A model generated the notes under the pieces. That model saw only the letters and a program-made list of their open reading frames with translations. It made no database searches and was not told the DNA's origin. From a virus (Duplodnaviria; Heunggongvirae; Uroviricota; Caudoviricetes), in IMG/VR virus record IMGVR_UViG_3300012346_000380, positions 160,001-224,000 of that record: 64,000 nt of DNA; one strand, given 5' to 3'. Below are positions 1,225 through 49,994 of the stretch, in pieces. The translations under genes were made by a program, and so were the position numbers. Numbering within the stretch: position 1 is the first letter of the stretch; each line of letters opens with the position of its first letter.

Positions 1225-1935
1225 TTATATATCACCTTTTCTGATAGCATTAAAAACAACATACTTTAAAATAGGTAAAAGACAATTTTCAAGAGGCATT
1301 TCTCTTTTAACGTCGGCTCTAATACATTGAGTACCAGGATTTAAAACTGTAACCAGGCTTACGTTTTCGCTTAAAGTATGAAGATCATAATTTTCATTTA
1401 AATCATCAAATTCAAATTTTAAATTTTTCCAGTCTTCTTCTATTTTTGAAGGTCGGTTAAAATGGTATGTTAATACTTTTTTATCGTGAGTTATTACGTA
1501 TAAAATAGCGTCTGACCAAATTATTTTTTTAGTAGGAATTGCAGTTAAACTTATAGCGTTTGAGTTAATACGCCATTTATCTCTTAGAAATCGATATAAT
1601 TTTTCTAAGAGTTCAACACTTTCGTCTGAAAGATTTTCTATGATTTGTAGATATTCTGAATTTTCTGGATATTCATATAACAATGACATGTTATCCAAGT
1701 CTAGACCCTTCAAAACTTTCATTCTGTCGTCTAGTATGTTTTTTTCGTATTTGTATTTATATAAATCCTCTAATCTATTTTCTATTTCTATCAAAACATC
1801 ATACAGCTCGTCAGATTTTATCAACGCACTATATTTCTTAAGTGCTGATAAAAGCTTATACTTTTTGTGTTCGTAATCTATAGGTTCTGAGAATAACCAA
1901 TTTGAGTCTAATACATCCATGTGGTATTTATCCAC
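1225..1935 (-). CDS. Hypothetical protein
   Basis: 236-aa ORF in a co-oriented cluster. Confidence 0.7.
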   Translation of the reverse strand: MDKYHMDVLDSNWLFSEPIDYEHKKYKLLSALKKYSALIKSDELYDVLIEIENRLEDLYKYKYEKNILDDRMKVLKGLDLDNMSLLYEYPENSEYLQIIENLSDESVELLEKLYRFLRDKWRINSNAISLTAIPTKKIIWSDAILYVITHDKKVLTYHFNRPSKIEEDWKNLKFEFDDLNENYDLHTLSENVSLVTVLNPGTQCIRADVKREMPLENCLLPILKYVVFNAIRKGDI

Positions 1936-1945
1936 TCACGATCCA

Positions 1946-2551
1946 TTAAATAACTCTACTATAACCTATTTGTTGTTTTTCATAGTTATAATTTGACATA
2001 ATTTTATCCCAGTATTTTTGATATTTTGAATTTTCTGGTTTTAAAATATGTTTAGGTATTTCTACAAAGTATCTGCGAATAGCATCTACTTTTTCAAAGC
2101 TAAATTCTTCACCTTTGTTTTTGAATGCGAAATAAAAATATAATTGTCTTGTGGTACCTTCGAAAGAATCCATAACATTATTAACTTCGTCTAATTCTAT
2201 TTCGAATTCTTCAGACAAAGCTTTAGCTAGTTCAGATAAACAACTTAATTCTTCGCTTAAATGGTGTGATAAAATCTTCTCTCTGCGTTTATTATATTTT
2301 TTACGAACATAATTCAACATATCTTGTTGTGTTTCTTCAGAACATCTATTAAAATTAGGAGTAGCTTTAACTTCTTCCAATTCTGCTTCGTATACAACTT
2401 CTTCTAATTTACATTCTAAATGTAAATGGTTGAATTCAAAATCTCCAGCTTCTATGCGCTGAAGTAATGGGCTTAAACCCTTAAAATAGTATTGTTTCGG
2501 TAATTTGATAGGTGCATAAAAGCGTCTCCACCATGTAAAAGCTCTACTCAT
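1946..2551 (-). CDS. Hypothetical protein
   Basis: 201-aa ORF downstream of an early-type promoter. Confidence 0.7.
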   Translation of the reverse strand: MSRAFTWWRRFYAPIKLPKQYYFKGLSPLLQRIEAGDFEFNHLHLECKLEEVVYEAELEEVKATPNFNRCSEETQQDMLNYVRKKYNKRREKILSHHLSEELSCLSELAKALSEEFEIELDEVNNVMDSFEGTTRQLYFYFAFKNKGEEFSFEKVDAIRRYFVEIPKHILKPENSKYQKYWDKIMSNYNYEKQQIGYSRVI

Positions 2552-2587
2552 ATTATTATATTATAATGTTATGTTATTATGTTATTA

Positions 2588-2628
2588 CAAATATACACAA
2601 AAAAGCCCAAACTAAAAAATCTGGGCTT
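2588..2628 (-). promoter_or_regulatory. Terminator hairpin fused to early (host sigma) promoter; repeated cassette
   Basis: Minus strand AAGCCCAGATTTTTTAGTTTGGGCTTTTTTGTG-TATATTTG; similar copies at ~28347, ~36601, ~52842 and ~62442. Confidence 0.65.
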
Positions 2629-2632
2629 ACTT

Positions 2633-2953
2633 TTATTTTCGTACTTTAACCTTTTCTTTATTAGGTTGAAATATTTTTAATTCGTTTCCTGTGTATTCTA
2701 ATGGATCTACTGTTAATCCCCATTGTAAAATAAACCAGCTTACTTCATTTTCCGCATTTTTAGAACTTAGTTTTAATTCTTGCATAATTCTACGTTTAGC
2801 ATATTCTGCAAATTCTGATTCAGCTGCTTTAGATGTTTTAAATTTAGTAAACCATTTAGGATCATCTATTACATCTTCGTATTTTTTACCGAATGGTTCT
2901 AATTGTTTATTGATGAGCTCTACGAAAAGCTCTCTTTGTTTATCTCTTCTCAT
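2633..2953 (-). CDS. Hypothetical protein
   Basis: 106-aa ORF tightly packed with neighbours. Confidence 0.65.
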   Translation of the reverse strand: MRRDKQRELFVELINKQLEPFGKKYEDVIDDPKWFTKFKTSKAAESEFAEYAKRRIMQELKLSSKNAENEVSWFILQWGLTVDPLEYTGNELKIFQPNKEKVKVRK

Positions 2954-2954
2954 T

Positions 2955-3164
2955 TTAGTTATTTAATAATTCAACTGGTTTAAGAATATCTGAATCTGTG
3001 AGATGGATAAATTTATTAATTTCTAAACTTACCATAACAGTATTGTGTTCTTGATTATTATAATATAATAATACAGTGTCTGGTTTAATTTCACTGTACC
3101 ATTCTAATTTTAGAATATTGTGATACTTTACAACATCTTCTGTATTAATATAAATATAAATCAT
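2955..3164 (-). CDS. Hypothetical protein
   Basis: 69-aa ORF whose start overlaps the clpP stop. Confidence 0.55.
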   Translation of the reverse strand: MIYIYINTEDVVKYHNILKLEWYSEIKPDTVLLYYNNQEHNTVMVSLEINKFIHLTDSDILKPVELLNN

Positions 3165-3850
3165 TATTTTCTAGATTTTGGTTTAACTACTTTGTCAATA
3201 ATACCATATTTAACTGCATCTTCTGCGCTTAACCAAAAATCTCTAGTAGCGTCTTTCATTACAGTATCAGCTGTCTTACCACAATAAGATCCTAAAAGTT
3301 CAAATAGAATTTTGTTAACTTTTTGCCATTCTTTCCAGTCGATTTCTGCGTCTTGAATATTTCCGCTAAATCCACCTGAAGATTGGTGTAACATTGTTGT
3401 TGAAAATCTTAATGAACTTCTTTTACCTTTTGTTCCAGCACCCAATAAAACTGATCCCATTGAAGCTGCCATACCTGTATTTACAGTTGCAATATCAGCA
3501 TTGATATAATCCATAACATCAACCATTGATAGACCTGACTTAACAGAACCACCGGGGGAGTCAATGTGCATCGTAATATCTTCTTTACCTACAGAATCTA
3601 AAAACATTAATTGAGCTTGAACTACAGTTGACATATTGTCATTTACTGGACCAGCAACCCATAAAACTCTTTCCATCATTAATCTAGAAAAAATATCCAT
3701 TTGTACTGCACGTAGTTCACGTTCTTCTAAAATATATGGAGTCATCGATGCATTAACACCTTTTTGGAATGAATCTAAATTTGATGAAGATAATCCAAAT
3801 TCTGATTTAGCGTATCTTTGAAATTCTTGTTCTTTTGGAATGTATATCAT
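3164..3850 (-). CDS. clpP: ATP-dependent Clp protease proteolytic subunit
   Basis: MDIFSRLMMER, IDSPGGSV, catalytic Ser in GMAASMGS, His in MLHQ, RDFWLSAEDAVKYGIID. Confidence 0.95.
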   Translation of the reverse strand: MIYIPKEQEFQRYAKSEFGLSSSNLDSFQKGVNASMTPYILEERELRAVQMDIFSRLMMERVLWVAGPVNDNMSTVVQAQLMFLDSVGKEDITMHIDSPGGSVKSGLSMVDVMDYINADIATVNTGMAASMGSVLLGAGTKGKRSSLRFSTTMLHQSSGGFSGNIQDAEIDWKEWQKVNKILFELLGSYCGKTADTVMKDATRDFWLSAEDAVKYGIIDKVVKPKSRK

Positions 3851-3851
3851 T

Positions 3852-4160
3852 TTAAATATTTTGTTTAATTTGTTTAATCATGTCGCAAGTTTCATATTCT
3901 TCTAATCCTTCGAAATATTCCATTGCTTTACCTAGAGATTTTGACCAATTGTCACCTATATTCTCTAGTATTAAAGTACTTTTGTTATTATAATCATCTA
4001 TAATATAACACAGTACACTTTCTGTTTCAATCAACTCAATACGATTTAAAATATATTGAACTATTCTTCTATAAAACAGATCTACATCGTGCATGGCGTC
4101 GTGTACGTCTTCTATAGAATCATTAGATTGCTTGACCCTGAGAGTTGGTATGTTTGCCAT
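3852..4160 (-). CDS. Hypothetical protein with UvrB/C (UVR)-like C-terminal motif
   Basis: C-terminal AMEYFEGLEEYETCDMIKQI resembles the UVR coiled-coil (EEYE.A..I). Confidence 0.5.
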   Translation of the reverse strand: MANIPTLRVKQSNDSIEDVHDAMHDVDLFYRRIVQYILNRIELIETESVLCYIIDDYNNKSTLILENIGDNWSKSLGKAMEYFEGLEEYETCDMIKQIKQNI

Positions 4161-5028
4161 ATACTTTTATATTAAGATATTCTGATAATAACTCTCTGTA
4201 TTGTTCTTGCGTAGCATCTGATTCAACTAGAGTATTTACATTTTTAATAAAATCTAAACCTTTAACGCATGTTACTTGTTCTAATTTATTATTAACATGT
4301 TGGTGATAGTAGAATAATGGTTTTTTCAAGATCATTTCATATTGAATAGGTGCAGATCCATTAGATTTAATTTTGTCTGCTAATTCAAAATGATGTTGGT
4401 AGAAATGAATATTATCGGCGAAATGTGTGTATGTGCCTAATTCTAAATTTGTGTATGCTTCTTCTTTTAACCAAAGATACATGTGTTGGTGCACGAATGC
4501 AAAGAATGGTGCATCGAATGTAAGACCATAGAAAATATCGTTTGATCTCATTTGAACTTTCATATTCAATTTGTTATCTCTGATAAAGAAATTTAAGTAC
4601 ATTGTACAAACAAAATCTTTATTACCTTCAAATTGATATTTAGGTTGATTTAAGAATGCAATAGCCTGTCTTGTATTTTTATCTTTCTTTAAAGAATCCA
4701 AACACCATGCTAATTGATCATTGAATAATAAGGCACCGTAATTTGAATTGATTTCATTAGTACCTGGATTTGTAATGTTTTTCCAAAAATTAGAAAACTT
4801 ATTGATGTAATCGATATTGGTATCTTTTTGTAAGTACCAAGCTAATTCGCCAGCAAAATATTTAAAGTTAAATTTACGATCTTCGAAATTTGCAATAGGT
4901 CTAGTCGAATCTACGTCTATTTGGCCATAAATTAATTCTTTGACTTTAAGATCTCTAGGTTGTGATATCGAACCTTTGCGTTCGATATCACGTATTAAAG
5001 ATATAAATGTTTCTGAGAAGTTATTCAT
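4123..5028 (-). CDS. Thymidylate-synthase-fold enzyme, probable dCMP hydroxymethylase/methylase
   Basis: NSNYG, RQAI, KDFVCT (catalytic Cys), MRSNDIFYGLTFD with Asp at the ThyA Asn177 position, HFY. Confidence 0.8.
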   Translation of the reverse strand: MNNFSETFISLIRDIERKGSISQPRDLKVKELIYGQIDVDSTRPIANFEDRKFNFKYFAGELAWYLQKDTNIDYINKFSNFWKNITNPGTNEINSNYGALLFNDQLAWCLDSLKKDKNTRQAIAFLNQPKYQFEGNKDFVCTMYLNFFIRDNKLNMKVQMRSNDIFYGLTFDAPFFAFVHQHMYLWLKEEAYTNLELGTYTHFADNIHFYQHHFELADKIKSNGSAPIQYEMILKKPLFYYHQHVNNKLEQVTCVKGLDFIKNVNTLVESDATQEQYRELLSEYLNIKVYGKHTNSQGQAI

Positions 5029-5066
5029 ATAATATTGTATTAATAATGTATTTTAATCTTATACTA

Positions 5067-7076
5067 CTATTTTAGAGAAAGTTTATCAGATCCTTTAATA
5101 TGATTGATTGTATAAACTTTATCTCCAACTTTCATTGTATTATCTAAAATATTATCTGACAATAAATCTTCTACATAATTTTGAATTGCTCTTTTAATTG
5201 GTCTAGCACCAAATTGTTGATCGTAACCGGCTTGAGCTAAAAACACTTTTGATTGCTTTGTAAATTTGATGTTATATCCTTGATCGTACATTCTTTCGAT
5301 AACATCCATCAATTCTAAATCTACGATTGCAATAACGTCCTCTTCTTTTAAATGATCGAATAGAATAATATCATCCATTCTATTTAAAAATTCAGGTGCA
5401 AATTTATTCTTAAGTTCTTTTCTAACGATAGCTTCAACTTTGGCTTTGTTTGTACCAATATTTGTATCACTATCAAATCCAATGCCTGTTCCAAATTCTG
5501 CCACTTTACGTGCACCAATATTAGACGTCATGATTATAATTGTATTAGTAAAATCTACAGTACGTCCTAAAGAATCTGTTAATCTACCATCGTCTAAAAC
5601 TTGCAATAAAGTATTAAATGTATCTGGGTGTGCTTTTTCAATTTCATCAAATAAAACAACAGAATATGGTTTACGTCTTACTGCTTCAGTTAATTGTCCA
5701 CCTTCTTCATAACCAACATAACCTGGAGGTGGTCCGACTAAACGAGATACGTTGAATTTTTCTTGGTATTCACTCATATCTAATCTGATCATAGCATCTT
5801 CAGAGCCATAATAATATCTTGCAAGAGCTTTAACTGTTTCAGTTTTACCAACACCAGTAGGTCCTAAAAACATGAATGACCCGATTGGTTTTCTAGAGCT
5901 AGAAACTCCAGTTCTAGATCTTCTAACAACTCTACATAAAGCATCTACAGCTTCGTCTTGTCCAATAATAAGTTTCTTTAATTCGTCTGCCATTTTCATG
6001 ATGATTTTCTTTTCATCACCATTTAATCTTGTTACAGGAATTCCAGTTATATCAGCTATAACTCCGGCTACATCTTCTTCAGTTACCTTTGTTTTTTTGT
6101 CTCTGATGTTTTGTTCCCACTCTTTGATTTTTGCATCAATTTCATTTTTCTTATTGATTTCAGCATCTCTGTAGAATGCAGCCTGTTCATAATCTTGTTT
6201 GGTTACAGCTTCTACTTTAGCTAATCTAGCATCATCAACTTCTTTTTCTAATTTCTTAACGAATTCAGGAACTTTGATTTCTTGCATGTGAATTTTTGCA
6301 CCAGCTTCATCCATAACATCGATAGCTTTGTCCGGTAATTCTCTTTGAGTAATATAACGTTCACTTAAATTAACACATGCATATAAAGCATCTTCTGTAT
6401 AAACTACAGCATGATGATCTTCATATTTGTCTTTGATTCTTTTTAAGATCTCAACAGTATCTTCACATGACGGTGGATCGATGAAAACTTCTTGGAAACG
6501 ACGCGTTAATGCTCCATCGCTTTCAATATTTTCTCTATATTCGTCTAGTGTAGTTGCACCGATACATTGTACTTGTCCACGTGCCAATGCTGGCTTAAGA
6601 ATATTAGAAGCATCTAAAGATCCTCCAGCTCCACCTGCACCAACTAAAGTATGAATCTCATCGATGAATAGAATAATATCAGTGTTGTCTTTTAATTCCT
6701 CAACAATATTTTTCATTCTCTCTTCAAATTCACCTCTGTATTTTGTACCTGCTACAATATTATTGATATTAAGTGAAATGATTCTTTTATTAAAAAGAGT
6801 TCTAGCTACTTTTTTATCTATAATTCTCTGAGCGATAGCTTCTACTAATGCGGTTTTACCAACACCCGGGTCCCCTAAAATAATAGGATTGTTTTTCTTT
6901 CTACGAGAAAGAATTTGACATATACGGTGTACTTCTTTTTCACGACCAATAATAGCATCTAATTTACCTTCTGATGCCATTTGTGTTAAGTCTTCGCCAA
7001 ATTGATCCAACAACGTAGTTGACTTTGGTTTCTTTTTATTGCCGCCTCTACCGAAACTTTCTTCAATGTTATCCAT
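5067..7076 (-). CDS. clpC: ClpC/ClpA-type AAA+ unfoldase lacking the N-terminal Clp-repeat domain
   Basis: Two Walker A motifs (GDPGVGKT, GPTGVGKT), IDEIH, RRFQ, UVR middle domain, GYVGYEEGG pore loop, GARPIKR; start moved to MDNIEE. Confidence 0.9.
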   Translation of the reverse strand: MDNIEESFGRGGNKKKPKSTTLLDQFGEDLTQMASEGKLDAIIGREKEVHRICQILSRRKKNNPIILGDPGVGKTALVEAIAQRIIDKKVARTLFNKRIISLNINNIVAGTKYRGEFEERMKNIVEELKDNTDIILFIDEIHTLVGAGGAGGSLDASNILKPALARGQVQCIGATTLDEYRENIESDGALTRRFQEVFIDPPSCEDTVEILKRIKDKYEDHHAVVYTEDALYACVNLSERYITQRELPDKAIDVMDEAGAKIHMQEIKVPEFVKKLEKEVDDARLAKVEAVTKQDYEQAAFYRDAEINKKNEIDAKIKEWEQNIRDKKTKVTEEDVAGVIADITGIPVTRLNGDEKKIIMKMADELKKLIIGQDEAVDALCRVVRRSRTGVSSSRKPIGSFMFLGPTGVGKTETVKALARYYYGSEDAMIRLDMSEYQEKFNVSRLVGPPPGYVGYEEGGQLTEAVRRKPYSVVLFDEIEKAHPDTFNTLLQVLDDGRLTDSLGRTVDFTNTIIIMTSNIGARKVAEFGTGIGFDSDTNIGTNKAKVEAIVRKELKNKFAPEFLNRMDDIILFDHLKEEDVIAIVDLELMDVIERMYDQGYNIKFTKQSKVFLAQAGYDQQFGARPIKRAIQNYVEDLLSDNILDNTMKVGDKVYTINHIKGSDKLSLK

Positions 7077-7089
7077 TCTTATTTGTTTA

Positions 7090-7545
7090 TTATTTTGATA
7101 AATTATCTGCCGCATTCACAGCAGGCAAAAGGTCTGGTTTAATTCTTGGTTTTATTCCCATAGATTGTACATATCCAGTAGCTGCGGCAACTAATTTATT
7201 AGAAGCATGCTTTTCATTGCTATTTAGATCAAGATCTATGTTATGTATATTTATACCATTTTCGCGGAGATACATTGCTAGAGAAACTGATTTTTCAACT
7301 TCATTCCACAATTTTGTCCACATATCATTAATTCTGTCAATCTTTTCTCTTTGAAACAAGACATGACATCCAGCTTCTCCGATATGGATCACTACTGTTG
7401 TAACATAAGTTGTATATACGCCTTTATTATGAGAATCACATCCGATATAAATTCTTAAATTTGAATTTTTATTGTTCTTGATGTATTCTTTTAAATATGA
7501 TGCGATTTCAACTTTTTCATACCCTGTTAATTTTTGAAATAGCAT
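7090..7545 (-). CDS. RNase H-like YkuK (DUF458) family protein
   Basis: IYIGCDSH, LWNEVEKS, IDLDLN, AADNL motifs; start moved to MLFQK to avoid overlap. Confidence 0.7.
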   Translation of the reverse strand: MLFQKLTGYEKVEIASYLKEYIKNNKNSNLRIYIGCDSHNKGVYTTYVTTVVIHIGEAGCHVLFQREKIDRINDMWTKLWNEVEKSVSLAMYLRENGINIHNIDLDLNSNEKHASNKLVAAATGYVQSMGIKPRIKPDLLPAVNAADNLSK

Positions 7546-7546
7546 C

Positions 7547-8215
7547 TTAGAAATTTGTTGATTGATCTGTTTTATATTTTTCCGTGAATTCACGAATTTT
7601 GTCTCTAGCTTCTTCTGCTGTATCAACGATTCTAAAAAGGTTTAAATCTTTATCGCTAATCATTCCATTTTCAACAGCAACTTCTTTTAACCATTCGATT
7701 AGGCCTGTCCAATATTCTTTACCAACTAAAACGATTGGATATTTTATATTGTGACCGCATTGAGCAAGAGTAACTGCTTCAAAGAATTCATCTAAAGTTC
7801 CAAGACCACCTGGAAATACTGCAAATCCTTGTGAATATTTAAGGAACATTACCTTTCTTGTAAAGAAATATCTACATTCAACACCAAGATCTACATATTG
7901 GTTCATACCAGCTTCAAATGGTAATTCAATTCCAATTCCAATAGATTTACCACCAACTTCATTTGCGCCCTGATTAGCAGCTTGCATGATTCCAGGACCA
8001 CCTCCAGTAATTACGCCAAATCCTTCTCTACTTATAAGAGCTCCGAATTTTCTGGCTTCTTCATACCATTTACTACCAACTTTAGTTCTAGCACTACCGA
8101 AAACCGAAACACAAGATCCTAATTCATTAAATGTATCAAATCCTTTTGTGAATTCCCCTTGAATCCTCAAGATTTGCCATGCATCTTCTGCTTTTTGTTC
8201 ATTTTTACTTATCAT
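7547..8215 (-). CDS. LOG family nucleotide phosphoribohydrolase (TIGR00730-like)
   Basis: VFGSAR, TGGGPGIM, RKVMF and PGGLGTLDE signature. Confidence 0.9.
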   Translation of the reverse strand: MISKNEQKAEDAWQILRIQGEFTKGFDTFNELGSCVSVFGSARTKVGSKWYEEARKFGALISREGFGVITGGGPGIMQAANQGANEVGGKSIGIGIELPFEAGMNQYVDLGVECRYFFTRKVMFLKYSQGFAVFPGGLGTLDEFFEAVTLAQCGHNIKYPIVLVGKEYWTGLIEWLKEVAVENGMISDKDLNLFRIVDTAEEARDKIREFTEKYKTDQSTNF

Positions 8216-13698: not shown

Positions 13699-14832
13699 AT
13701 GGCATTAATTACAACTTTAGGAGCTCCTTTAATCGAACAAAAACGTTCAGAAACCCTTAACTCTCAAGCTATTCGTAGAACTGTAGCTTTTGCAGACATC
13801 AATATTGTTGATGATAAAACTATCGAGTATAAAGGCTCTCGTTTATCAGTTTCAACTGACTTTTTCAAGCAATTACTAAAAATGATTGGTATGAGCCAAA
13901 CATTTGCTGGTAAGTTTGAATCTCTTTTTAATACAGAGACTAAAACAGCTTTTATTAACCGTATCAAAGATGCAATGGCTTCTAATGCTGGTGGTCTTTC
14001 TGAGGTTACATTAATTGTTAATCCTAATACCAAATCAGTTATTGGTCTTGCTAAGAATGCAACTGATATGATTTCAAACGATCGCTTCTTAAATGTAGTT
14101 GACCGTATCTTAGATCAAAATGGTTTAGAAATTTCTAACTGGTCTATTGATCCTATGAAAGGTATGGTTAACATCAACACATTTAATCCTAAAGCGGAAT
14201 TCCAAGTAGCTGGATTAAATGATGAGGTTTTCAAAGGTGGTGTTACTTTTCAAAATTCACCAAACGGAGGCTTTCAAGTTCTTCCTTATGTAAACCGTAT
14301 GTGGTGTACTAATGGCTTAACTACTGCTTTCGCTCAAGAGGCTTACACATTACAGTCTTTAGATGCTGGTACAATGGAGAAGTTCTTCGAGCAATTAAAT
14401 GATCTTCGTAAACGTAACTTTGCACCTTCAATGTTCTCTGACCAAGTTAAGCAAGCTATTGCTACTCCAGCGTCAATCTCTGAATTGCAAAATGGTTACT
14501 ATATGATTGAGAAATTTGCTGGTGAGCGTACAGACAACTGGATTCCTTTAAAAGAAAACATGAATGCATACGCTAAGAATGGTTTTGAGTTTATGTCAGC
14601 TGCTCAAATGAAAGGAGCTAGATCTAATACATCTATTTGGGACTTAGTTAACGGTGTTAACCACTTCGCTTCTCACGGTAACTCTATTATCGATACTAAC
14701 ATGCAAGACTATGATGCTACTCGCTTAATGGTTCAAGCTGGAAATATCTTCGGTAAACAATATGATCACGCTAACCAAATGCCAGACATCTTTAAAGGTG
14801 AATTGGTTCAACACGGTTCATTATTGAATTAA
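13699..14832 (+). CDS. DUF932-like domain protein
   Basis: G.TFQNS..G......V.RMWCTNG motif and C-terminal SIWDLVNGVNHFASH. Confidence 0.6.
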   Translation: MALITTLGAPLIEQKRSETLNSQAIRRTVAFADINIVDDKTIEYKGSRLSVSTDFFKQLLKMIGMSQTFAGKFESLFNTETKTAFINRIKDAMASNAGGLSEVTLIVNPNTKSVIGLAKNATDMISNDRFLNVVDRILDQNGLEISNWSIDPMKGMVNINTFNPKAEFQVAGLNDEVFKGGVTFQNSPNGGFQVLPYVNRMWCTNGLTTAFAQEAYTLQSLDAGTMEKFFEQLNDLRKRNFAPSMFSDQVKQAIATPASISELQNGYYMIEKFAGERTDNWIPLKENMNAYAKNGFEFMSAAQMKGARSNTSIWDLVNGVNHFASHGNSIIDTNMQDYDATRLMVQAGNIFGKQYDHANQMPDIFKGELVQHGSLLN

Positions 14833-14874
14833 TATAAATCTGAGTTCAGGCCGCTTCGAAGTTAAGGCTCAGTA

Positions 14875-14904
14875 AAAAGATCAGCGAAAGTTGATCTTTT
14901 TTTT
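14875..14904 (+). terminator. Rho-independent terminator
   Basis: AAAAGATCAGC-GAAA-GTTGATCTTTT followed by a T run. Confidence 0.8.
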
Positions 14905-14991
14905 CGCTTTTTTGTGAAAATAATTGCTTAAATATTTTGGGTTGTCAACTATTATGTGTATATTTACTCTATAATTAAAACACTAACAGAT

Positions 14992-15189
14992 ATGAAAGTA
15001 CAATTAAACATCGGTCCCTTATTATTAGCATTAGTATCAGGTTTTGTAGCCTTAAACATCTTAAATGGCAATGCTCTTAACTATGTTAAATTCGAGGCTG
15101 TAGAGAATGAATTAGGTTGCGCAGTTATAGCTTTAACAATGTGTGTCCTTTCATTGTTCGTAACTTTTGAAAAAATAACTGACAAATAA
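14992..15189 (+). CDS. Small two-TM membrane protein
   Basis: 65 aa with two hydrophobic segments; early promoter upstream. Confidence 0.6.
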   Translation: MKVQLNIGPLLLALVSGFVALNILNGNALNYVKFEAVENELGCAVIALTMCVLSLFVTFEKITDK

Positions 15190-48740: not shown

Positions 48741-48771
48741 AAAAAAAGCTCAATTCTAAGAACTGAGCTTT
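48741..48771 (-). terminator. Terminator closing the tRNA/ncRNA operon
   Basis: Minus strand AAAGCTCAGTTC-TTA-GAATTGAGCTTTTTTT. Confidence 0.75.
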
Positions 48772-48775
48772 AGTG

Positions 48776-48848
<73 letters not shown>

Positions 48849-48850
48849 AT

Positions 48851-48920
48851 TTGGGTAGGTCAGACGCGTTCTGCCTACCGAGACCTTGTCGTTGACTTTC
48901 GTCAGAGCGGACCAAGACAC
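48851..48920 (-). ncRNA. Candidate structured RNA in the tRNA-Gly leader
   Basis: Minus CTTGGTCCG...TGAC-GAAA-GTCA...CGACAAG, then the GGTAGGCAG/CTGACCTACC hairpin. Confidence 0.4.
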
Positions 48921-48935
48921 TTTTTAATAATAAGC

Positions 48936-49070
48936 AGGATGGGCTTTTATACGTGCTCTACCAACTGAGCTACTCTGAACGTGCCACTTAAGGCTGTGTT
49001 CAAAGGCCGGATTCGAACCGACGACCACGAGGTTAACAGCCTAGTTTTTATGGATTGCTGGAACCATCCT
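48936..49070 (-). ncRNA. CAGCAA cassette A: circularly permuted tRNA-Asn(GTT)-like RNA
   Basis: AGGATGG/CCATCCT closing stem; order is anticodon arm (CT GTT AA), T arm (GTCGG TTCGAAT CCGGC), acceptor 3' strand, 17-nt linker, acceptor 5' strand, D arm. Confidence 0.8.
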
Positions 49071-49086
49071 TGTATAATTAATAAAC

Positions 49087-49143
49087 GGAATACACATTGG
49101 TTTGAGTAAAAGTCAAAGTTTGTAAATTTGCTGTAGGTATTCC
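49087..49143 (-). ncRNA. CAGCAA cassette B: isolated tRNA-Lys(TTT)-like anticodon stem-loop
   Basis: GGAATAC/GTATTCC stem, CTA-CAGCAA, TTTGA-CTTTTAC-TCAAA. Confidence 0.65.
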
Positions 49144-49153
49144 AATAATTTTC

Positions 49154-49293
49154 AGGTTTCTATTGTTTTGACCAGCGCGTCTACCAATTTCGCCACACTC
49201 CAATTTGATTTAAATTTCGTTGGAGAGGTAGGACTCGAACCTACACGTCTTTCGACACCGGTTTCTTATAGAATTAATTGCTGTAAGAAACCT
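49154..49293 (-). ncRNA. CAGCAA cassette C: circularly permuted tRNA-Leu-like RNA
   Basis: AGGTTTC/GAAACCT stem; ACCGG, long variable arm GTC-GAAA-GAC, GTAGG TTCGAGT CCTAC, CTCTCCA, linker, TGGAGTG, Leu-type D arm GGCGAAATTGGTAGACGC, CTGGT. Confidence 0.8.
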
Positions 49294-49302
49294 TTAATGT
49301 TT

Positions 49303-49467
49303 TTATTTTACAGTCGTTGTATCAACTGTAACAGTGTCTACTTGTGCAGAATCAACCTGAACTGCTGTAGAATCAGCTGTTTCAGTTTTTGAAGTTGCTC
49401 CATTACCACAAGAAGCGATTGAGATTGTTGCTACGATAGCTGCGATTGCTAAAAATACTTTTTTCAT
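49303..49467 (-). CDS. Small Bacteroidota-type lipoprotein (54 aa; not in the ORF track)
   Basis: MKKVFLAIAAIVATISIAS-C-GNG lipobox; DS/DT-rich tail. Confidence 0.75.
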   Translation of the reverse strand: MKKVFLAIAAIVATISIASCGNGATSKTETADSTAVQVDSAQVDTVTVDTTTVK

Positions 49468-49503
49468 TTTTAATTTGTTTTAGTTTTAAATTTAATTGTA
49501 AAG

Positions 49504-49532
49504 ATTATACCCTTAAAGTTGGCTTTGTTTCA
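49504..49532 (-). promoter_or_regulatory. Middle-type promoter TGAAAC-N17-TATAAT heading the lipoprotein-ncRNA-tRNA operon
   Basis: Exact motif and spacing. Confidence 0.6.
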
Positions 49533-49536
49533 AAAA

Positions 49537-49713
49537 TTAAGCCTCTTTGTTTTTCTCAGAAACATCAACTCTTACTGCTTGAGCTAAAGCTTTAATATCT
49601 TGCATTGCTTTACGAACTCTGGTTCCAGCTGCTTTGTTTCCTTTTTCGAAAAATTTAGTTGCGTCTTCTTTGATTGAGTTAAGAATCTCTTCGATCTGAT
49701 TTAAATTTTGCAT
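49537..49713 (-). CDS. Histone H1-like (Hc1-family) nucleoid protein (58 aa; not in the ORF track)
   Basis: Read manually: ...KEDATKFFEKGNKAAGTRVRKAMQDIKALAQAVR..., with the KF.EKGNKAAG.R.RK signature. Confidence 0.8.
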   Translation of the reverse strand: MQNLNQIEEILNSIKEDATKFFEKGNKAAGTRVRKAMQDIKALAQAVRVDVSEKNKEA

Positions 49714-49752
49714 GTTTTTTAATTTTTTAATTAATAATTATACTGGTAAAAT

Positions 49753-49786
49753 AAAAAAGGTTTCATCGTTAAATGAAACCTTTTTT
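49753..49786 (-). terminator. Terminator after tRNA-Ala, overlapping a middle-type promoter (49737-49765)
   Basis: AAAAAAGGTTTCAT-CGTTAA-ATGAAACCTTTTTT. Confidence 0.7.
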
Positions 49787-49787
49787 G

Positions 49788-49861
49788 TGGAGATGACAGG
49801 AATCGAACCTGCGACCCTCTGCGTGCAAGGCAGATGCTCTAGCCAACTGAGCTACATCCCC
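49788..49861 (-). tRNA. tRNA-Ala (TGC)
   Basis: GGGGATG/CATCTCC acceptor with G3:U70, TCTGC-CTTGCAC-GCAGA anticodon arm, GGTTCGATT T loop. Confidence 0.95.
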
Positions 49862-49938
49862 AAGAGAGTTAGGACCTGAGACTTCTGCTATCTAGAATTT
49901 CTGCTGCTCCGTCCATACTCTTAGTCTTTTAAAAAAAC

Positions 49939-49994
49939 AGGATGCTATGTTTTGCTTTTCCATATAAAGTTTTTAAATTTGCTGGAAGCATCCT
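49939..49994 (-). ncRNA. CAGCAA cassette D: short payload with a weak hairpin
   Basis: AGGATGC/GCATCCT stem, TTC-CAGCAA, ATTTAAAAAC spacer like cassette B, CAAAACATA 3' linker like cassette C. Confidence 0.6.

Follow-up and report, generated by a model that had tools for sequence, protein, structure and literature searches.

We identified four small RNA elements, A to D, in a 64,000-nucleotide (nt) stretch of phage DNA (Caudoviricetes), hereafter the window, which comprises bases 160001-224000 of the 256,444-base pair (bp) IMG/VR record IMGVR_UViG_3300012346_000380, a record with direct terminal repeats. The elements share one terminal structure, here called the handle, and differ in the payload that it carries. 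On balance, we judge that A to D are genes for small stable RNAs that serve a Ro60-like protein of the phage itself as Y RNAs would, the product of a DUF2828 gene that lies elsewhere in the same genome and is accompanied there by two further handle RNAs, E and F. A to D are read in this way because the RNAs follow the same logic as Y RNAs and the protein has the same predicted fold as Ro60; since the handle flanks the gene for this Ro60-shaped protein both here and in very different phages, the four elements are probably partner RNAs that bind a divergent Ro60-like protein of the DUF2828 type. A first-pass annotation of the window had offered Y-RNA-like adaptors for one RNA-binding protein as one of several options, and this option gains support from the Ro60-fold gene, the adjacency of E and F to it and the recurrent pairing of RNAs and gene described below.

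The four elements and their parts, in window positions, are as follows.

Element A, 48936..49070, minus strand: 135 nt plus a 3' G at 48935; stem AGGATGG/CCATCCT.
Handle of A, minus strand: 5' strand 49064-49070; CAGCAA 49055-49060; 3' strand 48936-48942.
Payload of A, minus strand: Asn(GUU) anticodon hairpin 49030-49043; T arm 49006-49022; acceptor helix 48999-49005/48973-48979, closed by an 18-nt loop; D arm 48955-48970.
Element B, 49087..49143, minus strand: 57 nt; GGAATAC-CTA-CAGCAA; 3' strand GTATTCC.
Payload of B, 49101-49117, minus strand: look-alike of the Lys(UUU) anticodon hairpin, 5 bp and a 7-nt loop, TTTGA-CTTTTAC-TCAAA.
Element C, 49154..49293, minus strand: 140 nt; AGGTTTC-TTA-CAGCAA; 3' strand GAAACCT.
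Payload of C, minus strand: anticodon stem 49258-49262/49171-49175; variable arm 49246-49257; T arm 49228-49244; capped acceptor 49221-49227/49196-49202; D arm 49177-49193.
Element D, 49939..49994, minus strand: 56 nt; AGGATGC-TTC-CAGCAA; 3' strand GCATCCT.
Payload of D, within 49939..49994, minus strand: short 4-bp CTTT/AAAG hairpin and a second AGCAA.

All four are built alike, with a 7-bp closing helix, 3 nt (UUA in C and also in E, CUA in B, UUC in A and D), an invariant CAGCAA, an A/U-rich connector, the payload and a 3' strand that is the exact complement of the 5' strand and is directly followed by a G. Four minus-strand elements with these coordinates, stems and shared architecture had been proposed in the first-pass annotation and were confirmed on the sequence; its description of the payloads as a permuted tRNA-Asn, a Lys hairpin, a permuted tRNA-Leu and a small hairpin was borne out. 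Minimum free energy (MFE) folding of A returned exactly the assigned helices (z -2.7), and alignment with the phage's own tRNA-Asn gave the permuted order of 3' half, capped acceptor and 5' half. C aligned with the phage's tRNA-Leu(UAG) as a permuted class II body that keeps the long variable arm, the handle standing in place of the anticodon loop. A relaxed handle scan of the whole genome yielded eight matches, compared with 2.5 in shuffled sequences; five of the eight were A to E, all intergenic and all on the transcribed strand.

Related phages, located via the neighbouring exonuclease and amidotransferase genes at identities from 99% down to 53%, revealed compensatory changes in these helices. 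The B stem changes from GGAATAC/GTATTCC to GGGATAC/GTATCCC, and the B hairpin is identical in sequence across phages whose neighbouring exonuclease is only 55-76% identical, with the stem altered on both sides. D-like orthologues carry AGGATAC/GTATCCT and AGGATAT/ATATCCT. Both sides of the anticodon stem, variable arm, D stem and acceptor differ in the 91% relative of C; a local hairpin favoured by MFE folding of C is destroyed in the same relative and was rejected.

The handle extends far beyond these relatives. An IMG/VR pattern that fixed only AGGAT, one T, CAGCAA and ATCCTG, leaving stem positions 6 and 7 free, matched at least 120 stretches, mostly within tRNA arrays and on contigs of 28-54% G+C. 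Among the matches listed, positions 6 and 7 both pair in 90 of 101, where chance would give about 14%; because these positions were unconstrained, the pairing test is unbiased, and its outcome agrees with covariation. Across 93 distinct members, aligned by fitting to a model that was made from the clade of this phage, pairing holds in 99.8% of stem cells, and 117 cells differ on both sides; the covariation score is 0.50 compared with 0.10 in shuffles (0 of 500 reaching it), and slid controls pair at 28-43%. The stem covariation that the first-pass annotation expected is thus seen both in the orthologues and in the wider family. The family consensus, partly fixed by the manner in which members were discovered, reads WGGNNNN, NUN, CAGCAA, about 10 A/U-rich bases free of G, then the payload, a run of AAA that stands 3-5 nt ahead of the 3' strand, NNNNCCW and G. 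Of the wider search proposed earlier, homologues and covariation far beyond the locus came from phages, whereas the Bacteroidota genomes gave none that convinced: no convincing cellular copy was found when a model was run on 5 plus 151 of them, a weak search that scored only 36-150 candidates per genome, and the matches obtained reached only 25-30 bits at about the frequency predicted by chance. A single cellular look-alike (L138) was set aside, its flanks being G+C-rich.

The IMG/VR elements occupy tRNA-sized slots on the strand of the tRNAs, 4-11 nt from the neighbouring tRNAs, and Pseudomonas phage Milchi has an unannotated element between tRNA-Asp and tRNA-Lys. About 48 canonical anticodon-type loops occur among 124 distinct small elements, 39 of them of the form CU-NNU-AA (UUU 15, UGU 10, UCU 6, GCU 3, GUU 2). 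Long members with permuted tRNA bodies like those of A and C number 58 distinct (IMG/VR loci L143-L262). One recurrent long type combines a Tyr(GUA)-like hairpin with T arm, capped acceptor and D arm (L165, L170, L174 and L182, and also L216, L222, L229 and L257). Some members stand in tandem: L177:13784-14014, and also L221, hold perfect 76-nt repeats and L219 has 64-nt units, the repeat unit being a whole handle element (AGGATAC, ATC, CAGCAA ... GTATCCT, G) plus TAT. These three contigs come from bins labelled GVMAG (giant virus), and no tRNA was found in the loci.

The genome holds one DUF2828 gene, directly followed by E and F.

DUF2828+DUF7788 gene (PF11443 + PF25043), genome 12758-14185, outside the window, minus strand: 475 amino acids (aa).
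RNA E, genome 12684-12741, minus strand: 58 nt; begins 16 nt past the DUF2828 stop; three AGCAA repeats.
RNA F, genome 12433-12681, minus strand: 249 nt; begins two bases after E and is followed by a terminator.

The handle of F consists of TGGATCG, GTA, CAGCAA and a closing CGATCC (a 6-bp helix). Its payload matched no Rfam family at E <= 1 and has conserved blocks and some covarying helices across five phages. The order gene, E, F is retained in five relatives whose DUF2828 proteins are 69-87% identical, and both stems covary (TGGTTCC, AGGTTCC and AGATTCC in E; ATCG, AACG, ATGG and ATAG in F). The protein is predicted to have the Ro60 fold, with a ring of HEAT repeats and a C-terminal von Willebrand factor A (vWA) domain bearing a MIDAS (metal ion-dependent adhesion site). 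An AlphaFold model made with 12 homologues (predicted local distance difference test, pLDDT, 75; predicted template modelling score, pTM, 0.70) is helical throughout its N-terminal half and has an alpha/beta domain at the C terminus. In a Foldseek comparison with the PDB, full-length Ro60/TROVE chains of Thermus phage phiLo, Xenopus, Deinococcus and human take all 13 top ranks (E 4e-9 to 1e-5; template modelling score mostly 0.5-0.6), and isolated vWA domains rank below them. The MIDAS residues DxSxS..T..D are invariant across the 12 homologues, and in a sequence profile search of the PDB the TROVE proteins rank first, weakly (E 0.03). Pfam family searches found none of TROVE (PF05731), RRM_1 and RtcB in the genome; the co-occurrence with TROVE or RtcB that the first-pass annotation had suggested looking for was therefore not seen in this genome, and the DUF2828 protein with its predicted Ro60 fold is present instead. 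Directly upstream of the DUF2828 gene lies a sigma-70-family gene (genome ~14494-15093; L280:7495-8094), and 6 kb further up a PolyA_pol-head protein of the CCA-adding enzyme type is encoded (genome 20212-20949; L280:13213-13950).

RNA and gene travel together. Among the matches listed, 38 IMG/VR records were selected by the RNA pattern alone, and DUF2828 is present in 25 of them, against a base rate of 709 of 50,697 cultured phage records (1.4%). Five of the six complete records in this selection carry the gene; in the sixth, the RNA match is false (5 of 7 pairs). Milchi, found by RNA similarity alone, also carries a DUF2828 gene. Conversely, 10 of 12 IMG/VR DUF2828 loci have handle RNAs on the strand of the gene, directly before or after it and within a few hundred nt. 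Three handle RNAs follow gp55 of Mycobacterium phage Faith1, the middle one being an Asn-type tRNA mimic like A; four lie at the DUF2828 gene of Escherichia coli phage garuso (Felixounavirus), two at that of Campylobacter phage F372, three at that of Listeria phage LMTA-57 and one at that of Fusobacterium phage FNU2, and three follow that of Staphylococcus phage S-CoN_Ph1. The pairing is seen in phages of at least six bacterial phyla, and DUF2828 is the only gene that accompanies handle RNAs in every lineage sampled. In S-CoN_Ph1, two annotated small 'hypothetical protein' coding sequences (L286:3010-3099, 3229-3357) overlap the three handle RNAs and are probably mis-called. In LMTA-57, an annotated tRNA-splicing ligase of RtcB type (L285:4341-4497) lies 1.3 kb downstream of DUF2828 and the RNAs, a setting that we liken to the rsr-yrlBA-rtcBA operon of Salmonella.

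It is known that TROVE-type Ro60 binds a helix formed by the 5' and 3' ends of the RNA that flanks a bulge with CGAA or GNCGAAN0-1G, the latter being the bacterial motif; phiLo Yrl2 has CGAA at nt 8-11, and YrlA joins a Ro60-binding stem to a permuted tRNA-like domain (PMC4201824, PMC12135203). The system described here is likewise composed of a gene for a predicted ring-shaped HEAT and vWA protein flanked by small RNAs, several per genome, and like Y RNA/YrlA and phiLo Yrl1/Yrl2 (PMC4201824, PMC12135203) its RNAs place a helix of 5' and 3' ends beside a conserved single-stranded motif. The permuted order of T arm, capped acceptor and D arm in YrlA is the same as in A and C, which keep that order together with a terminal helix and the elbow nucleotides; B and D have no such domain. 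In the YrlA of M. smegmatis, the capped acceptor is nicked by RNase P. The YrlA model (RF02553) matches A across its tRNA part with 34.5 bits (E 2.6e-5) against a gathering score of 69, and the Faith1 homologue with 21.7 bits. At the gathering threshold, an Rfam scan of the whole window returned two tRNAs only, so that the first-pass annotation's inability to place the CAGCAA scaffold in a known family stands, no Rfam family reaching threshold. The likeness to the known systems has limits: the partner here is DUF2828+DUF7788, not Pfam TROVE, with 12-17% identity to solved Ro60s, and, unlike YrlA, many handle RNAs bear an anticodon hairpin alone or unrelated payloads and most copies sit in tRNA arrays distant from the gene. 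Mycobacteriophage database annotations already name the DUF2828 gene 'Ro-like RNA binding protein', while jumbo-phage surveys name TROVE proteins only (PMC7824862). We found no publication on the handle RNA family or on DUF2828 as an RNA-binding protein, a comparison that did not take in the phage RNAs in the Chen 2014 supplements.

Public runs containing this stretch of the phage come from freshwater metagenomes of 15 studies, and six of the runs are RNA libraries. The expression data are assembled contigs of such libraries and carry no end or strand information. Two metatranscriptome runs, each of a different study, contain short exact contigs of 117-138 nt over A, B and C, with word depths of 580-2869 and 1918-7762 compared with 126-259 and 385-846 over the flanking coding regions, i.e., 3-30 times the depth of the flanks and with the tRNAs at a level similar to the elements. 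These values hint at an accumulation of the array as stable RNA.

What CAGCAA does and what the particle does downstream we infer as follows. The handle (7-bp helix, NUN-CAGCAA, AAA-rich 3' connector and 3' G) would be a protein-binding module, analogous to the terminal stem and CGAA bulge by which Y RNAs bind TROVE-type Ro60. The payload would project from the particle as a full tRNA elbow (A and C) or a bare anticodon hairpin (B), and would show a tRNA look-alike to proteins that recognise tRNA. Given the tRNA-rich setting of the phage and the preference of the payloads for loops decoding ANN codons, tRNA-directed RNA surveillance or counter-defence during infection would be the most likely job, with tRNA-processing enzymes or anticodon nucleases tethered or baited at a ring able to thread RNA ends. 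Decoy or repair-precursor activity, two further options of the first-pass annotation, could be what such a ribonucleoprotein does.

Several observations weigh against an assignment of A to D to the DUF2828 protein. The handle motif is NUN-CAGCAA and not the Ro60 site GNCGAAN0-1G/CGAA, no CGAA bulge being present at that place, and the protein has no Pfam TROVE match, being assigned to PF11443/PF25043 instead. A to D lie ~195 kb from the DUF2828 gene. Thirteen of the 38 RNA-bearing records have no DUF2828, all but one of them fragments of 4-62% completeness; conversely, Aeromonas phage PX29 and Milchi carry DUF2828, and no handle RNA was found within 1.5 kb of it. On the side of expression, the depth of A is inflated by words common to all tRNAs and that of D is not clearly above its flanks. 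Finally, tRNA-rich phages could hold the RNAs and the gene for separate reasons, an account against which the handle RNA loci that lack tRNAs (E/F and Faith1) argue.

Instead of serving the Ro60-like protein, the RNAs might be free-standing decoys or sponges that bait host anticodon nucleases (PrrC/RloC, PARIS AriB or colicin-type) or tRNA-modifying enzymes, with the handle merely stabilising the ends. The payload hairpins do have canonical 7-nt anticodon loops, and the 39 CU-NNU-AA loops among the ~48 correspond to ANN decoders, which include the known Lys, Asn and Thr targets of PrrC and PARIS. Moreover, the Lys hairpin of B is invariant in sequence across distant relatives, and the phage encodes normal tRNA-Lys, tRNA-Asn and tRNA-Leu genes, so that the mimics are not required for decoding. 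However, end stabilisation accounts neither for the constancy of CAGCAA and the 3' G, beside varying stems, across phages of six phyla nor for the position of the RNAs next to DUF2828, and D, E and the 249-nt F have no anticodon-like loop. We therefore regard free-standing decoys as unlikely, if worth keeping in view; a decoy role is compatible with a Y-RNA-like assignment as the downstream role of the particle.

There is a slightly smaller chance that the protein bound to the handle is a different one, of the host or of the phage and shared by many bacteria, and that the closeness to DUF2828 reflects co-regulation within a module of RNA metabolism and not direct binding. The conservation of the handle in phages of very different hosts fits such a protein, and the neighbours of DUF2828 vary by phage, with a sigma factor in this genome and RtcB close to the gene in the Listeria phage. 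On the other hand, only DUF2828 travels with the RNAs in every lineage sampled, RRM (RNA recognition motif), TROVE and RtcB are absent from the genome, and the model search, with 36-150 candidates scored in each of 156 Bacteroidota genomes, brought up no cellular copy that convinced. RbpB, a host RRM protein, was considered as the partner and rejected, since the crosslinking and immunoprecipitation (CLIP) paper gives no matching motif.

The Class I RNAs of Dictyostelium also speak for a different protein, being RNAs of similar stem and motif, i.e., a stem plus CUUACAGCAA, that were pulled down with an RRM protein (PMC7919456). Class I RNAs, reported only from Dictyostelia (Kjellin et al. 2021, PMC7919456), are defined by a short terminal helix that is directly followed by the 11-nt motif CCUUACAGCAA (PMC7919456). 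Like the handle RNAs, they are ~55-60 nt in length, with a short helix joining the ends, a variable remainder, a 3' end in ..CUG and many paralogues; a motif ending in ACAGCAA directly follows their 5' strand, and C has UUACAGCAA there. The Rfam Class I model (RF01414) gave 30.2 bits for D, 22.1 for C and 19.0 for B against a gathering score of 41.5. The two groups differ in that the dictyostelid genes have a DUSE promoter ~60 nt upstream, whereas the phage genome has sigma-70-like matches, and in that an RRM protein is their partner; the best phage score is below the gathering score. No RF01414 match was obtained at E 0.05 in nine loci with other members of the phage family, so the likeness is partial; as Class I RNAs are reported to be unique to dictyostelids, it is a lead only. 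Homology between the two groups is unproven, and convergence could account for the likeness. DDB_G0281243, a protein of unknown function, is one of four proteins pulled down with the Class I RNA DdR-21 (bioRxiv 10.1101/2020.04.05.026054). A bolder view, to which we give as little credence as to a different handle-binding protein, would take DUF2828 and the CAGCAA-handle RNAs as a second, undescribed Ro60/Y-RNA branch that is common among giant-virus bins and the phages of most bacterial phyla, with interchangeable payloads of tRNA parts that bait tRNA nucleases or enzymes and with the Class I RNAs as its eukaryotic members, whose partner would possibly be of DUF2828 type.

It is improbable that the elements are processing or insulating spacers of tRNA operons, i.e., hairpins that guide RNase cleavage and are functionless after release. 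The small IMG/VR elements do sit in tRNA-sized slots, 4-11 nt from tRNAs on the same strand. Yet no tRNAs enclose E, F or the copies in Faith1 and in the Staphylococcus and Fusobacterium phages, the payloads show structure and conservation, with whole tRNA bodies that carry compensatory changes among them, and ordinary tRNA pairs in the same arrays manage without such a spacer. Stable small RNAs in a phage tRNA cluster are also known from T4, whose rnaC and rnaD (species 1 and 2 RNAs) are of unknown function; rnaC ends in a T arm and acceptor, and both were rejected as members of the same family, having no terminal helix and CAGCAA handle.

Very improbable, finally, is a reading of the elements as decayed tRNA pseudogenes or as working tRNAs of an unusual, permuted or armless form: A and C do come from tRNA-Asn and tRNA-Leu, and the small elements combine a 7-bp end helix with an anticodon-like hairpin, but the acceptor helix is closed by a loop with no encoded CCA, the anticodon loop of C is replaced by the handle, no bulge-helix-bulge is found at the ends, ARAGORN and the Rfam tRNA model make no call, and conservation with compensatory changes excludes pseudogene decay. 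In detail, A scores 16.9 bits with the tRNA model (RF00005), and tRNA-Gly and tRNA-Ala are the only calls that ARAGORN and Infernal make in the window. The permuted tRNA genes of Cyanidioschyzon and some archaea likewise encode the 3' half ahead of the 5' half and pass through a circular intermediate to normal tRNAs, whereas A and C retain a capped acceptor and have their anticodon region attached to the handle.

The neighbourhood of the elements in the window comprises the following features.

tRNA-Ala(UGC), 49787..49861, minus strand: 77 nt downstream of D.
Hc1 histone H1-like protein gene, 49537-49713, minus strand: Pfam E 3e-22.
Sigma-70-type promoter-like site, 49504..49533, minus strand: TTGAAA, 18 nt, TATAAT; 11 of 12 consensus positions, a consensus match only.
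54-aa open reading frame (ORF), 49303..49467, minus strand: lipoprotein-like signal; between the promoter-like site and element C.
tRNA-Gly(GCC), 48775..48848, minus strand: 87 nt downstream of A, followed by a terminator hairpin.
Terminator hairpin after tRNA-Gly, 48745-48771, minus strand.

On the minus strand the order is thus promoter-like site, 54-aa ORF, C, B, A, tRNA-Gly and terminator. The promoter-like site (here at 49533-49504, with 11 of 12 positions), the terminator, tRNA-Gly and tRNA-Ala of the first-pass annotation were all found again; the 54-aa ORF is an addition to it. The leaders from A to tRNA-Gly (87 nt, 48849-48935) and from D to tRNA-Ala (77 nt, 49862-49938), both on the minus strand, fold no better than shuffled sequence; the former is rich in G+C, contains a hairpin capped by GAAA and is covered at high depth in the RNA libraries. 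The genome as a whole has a G+C content of 32%, and its 27 ordinary tRNA genes all lie on the minus strand. The Hc1 gene lies between D/tRNA-Ala and the C-B-A array, and its nearest cellular relatives are in Bacteroidota; it is the sole support for a Bacteroidota host, which is unproven.

In summary, Ro60 and Y RNAs form a long-studied and still poorly understood RNA-surveillance system. In the present case, a Ro60-like protein of divergent sequence is accompanied by an RNA family of its own, which has hundreds of members at the least and joins a handle that is simple and easy to recognise to modular payloads derived from tRNA. Tractable phages are among those with the pairing, namely mycobacteriophages of cluster L, coliphages of Felix O1 type, Listeria phages of P100 type and Campylobacter phages; there, the RNAs lack annotation or share their positions with small ORF calls. 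The finding would correct the annotation of many phage tRNA regions, and it allows direct tests of what role Y-like RNAs play in infection, whether tRNA mimics counter tRNA-cleaving defences and how a Ro-type ring reads its RNA.

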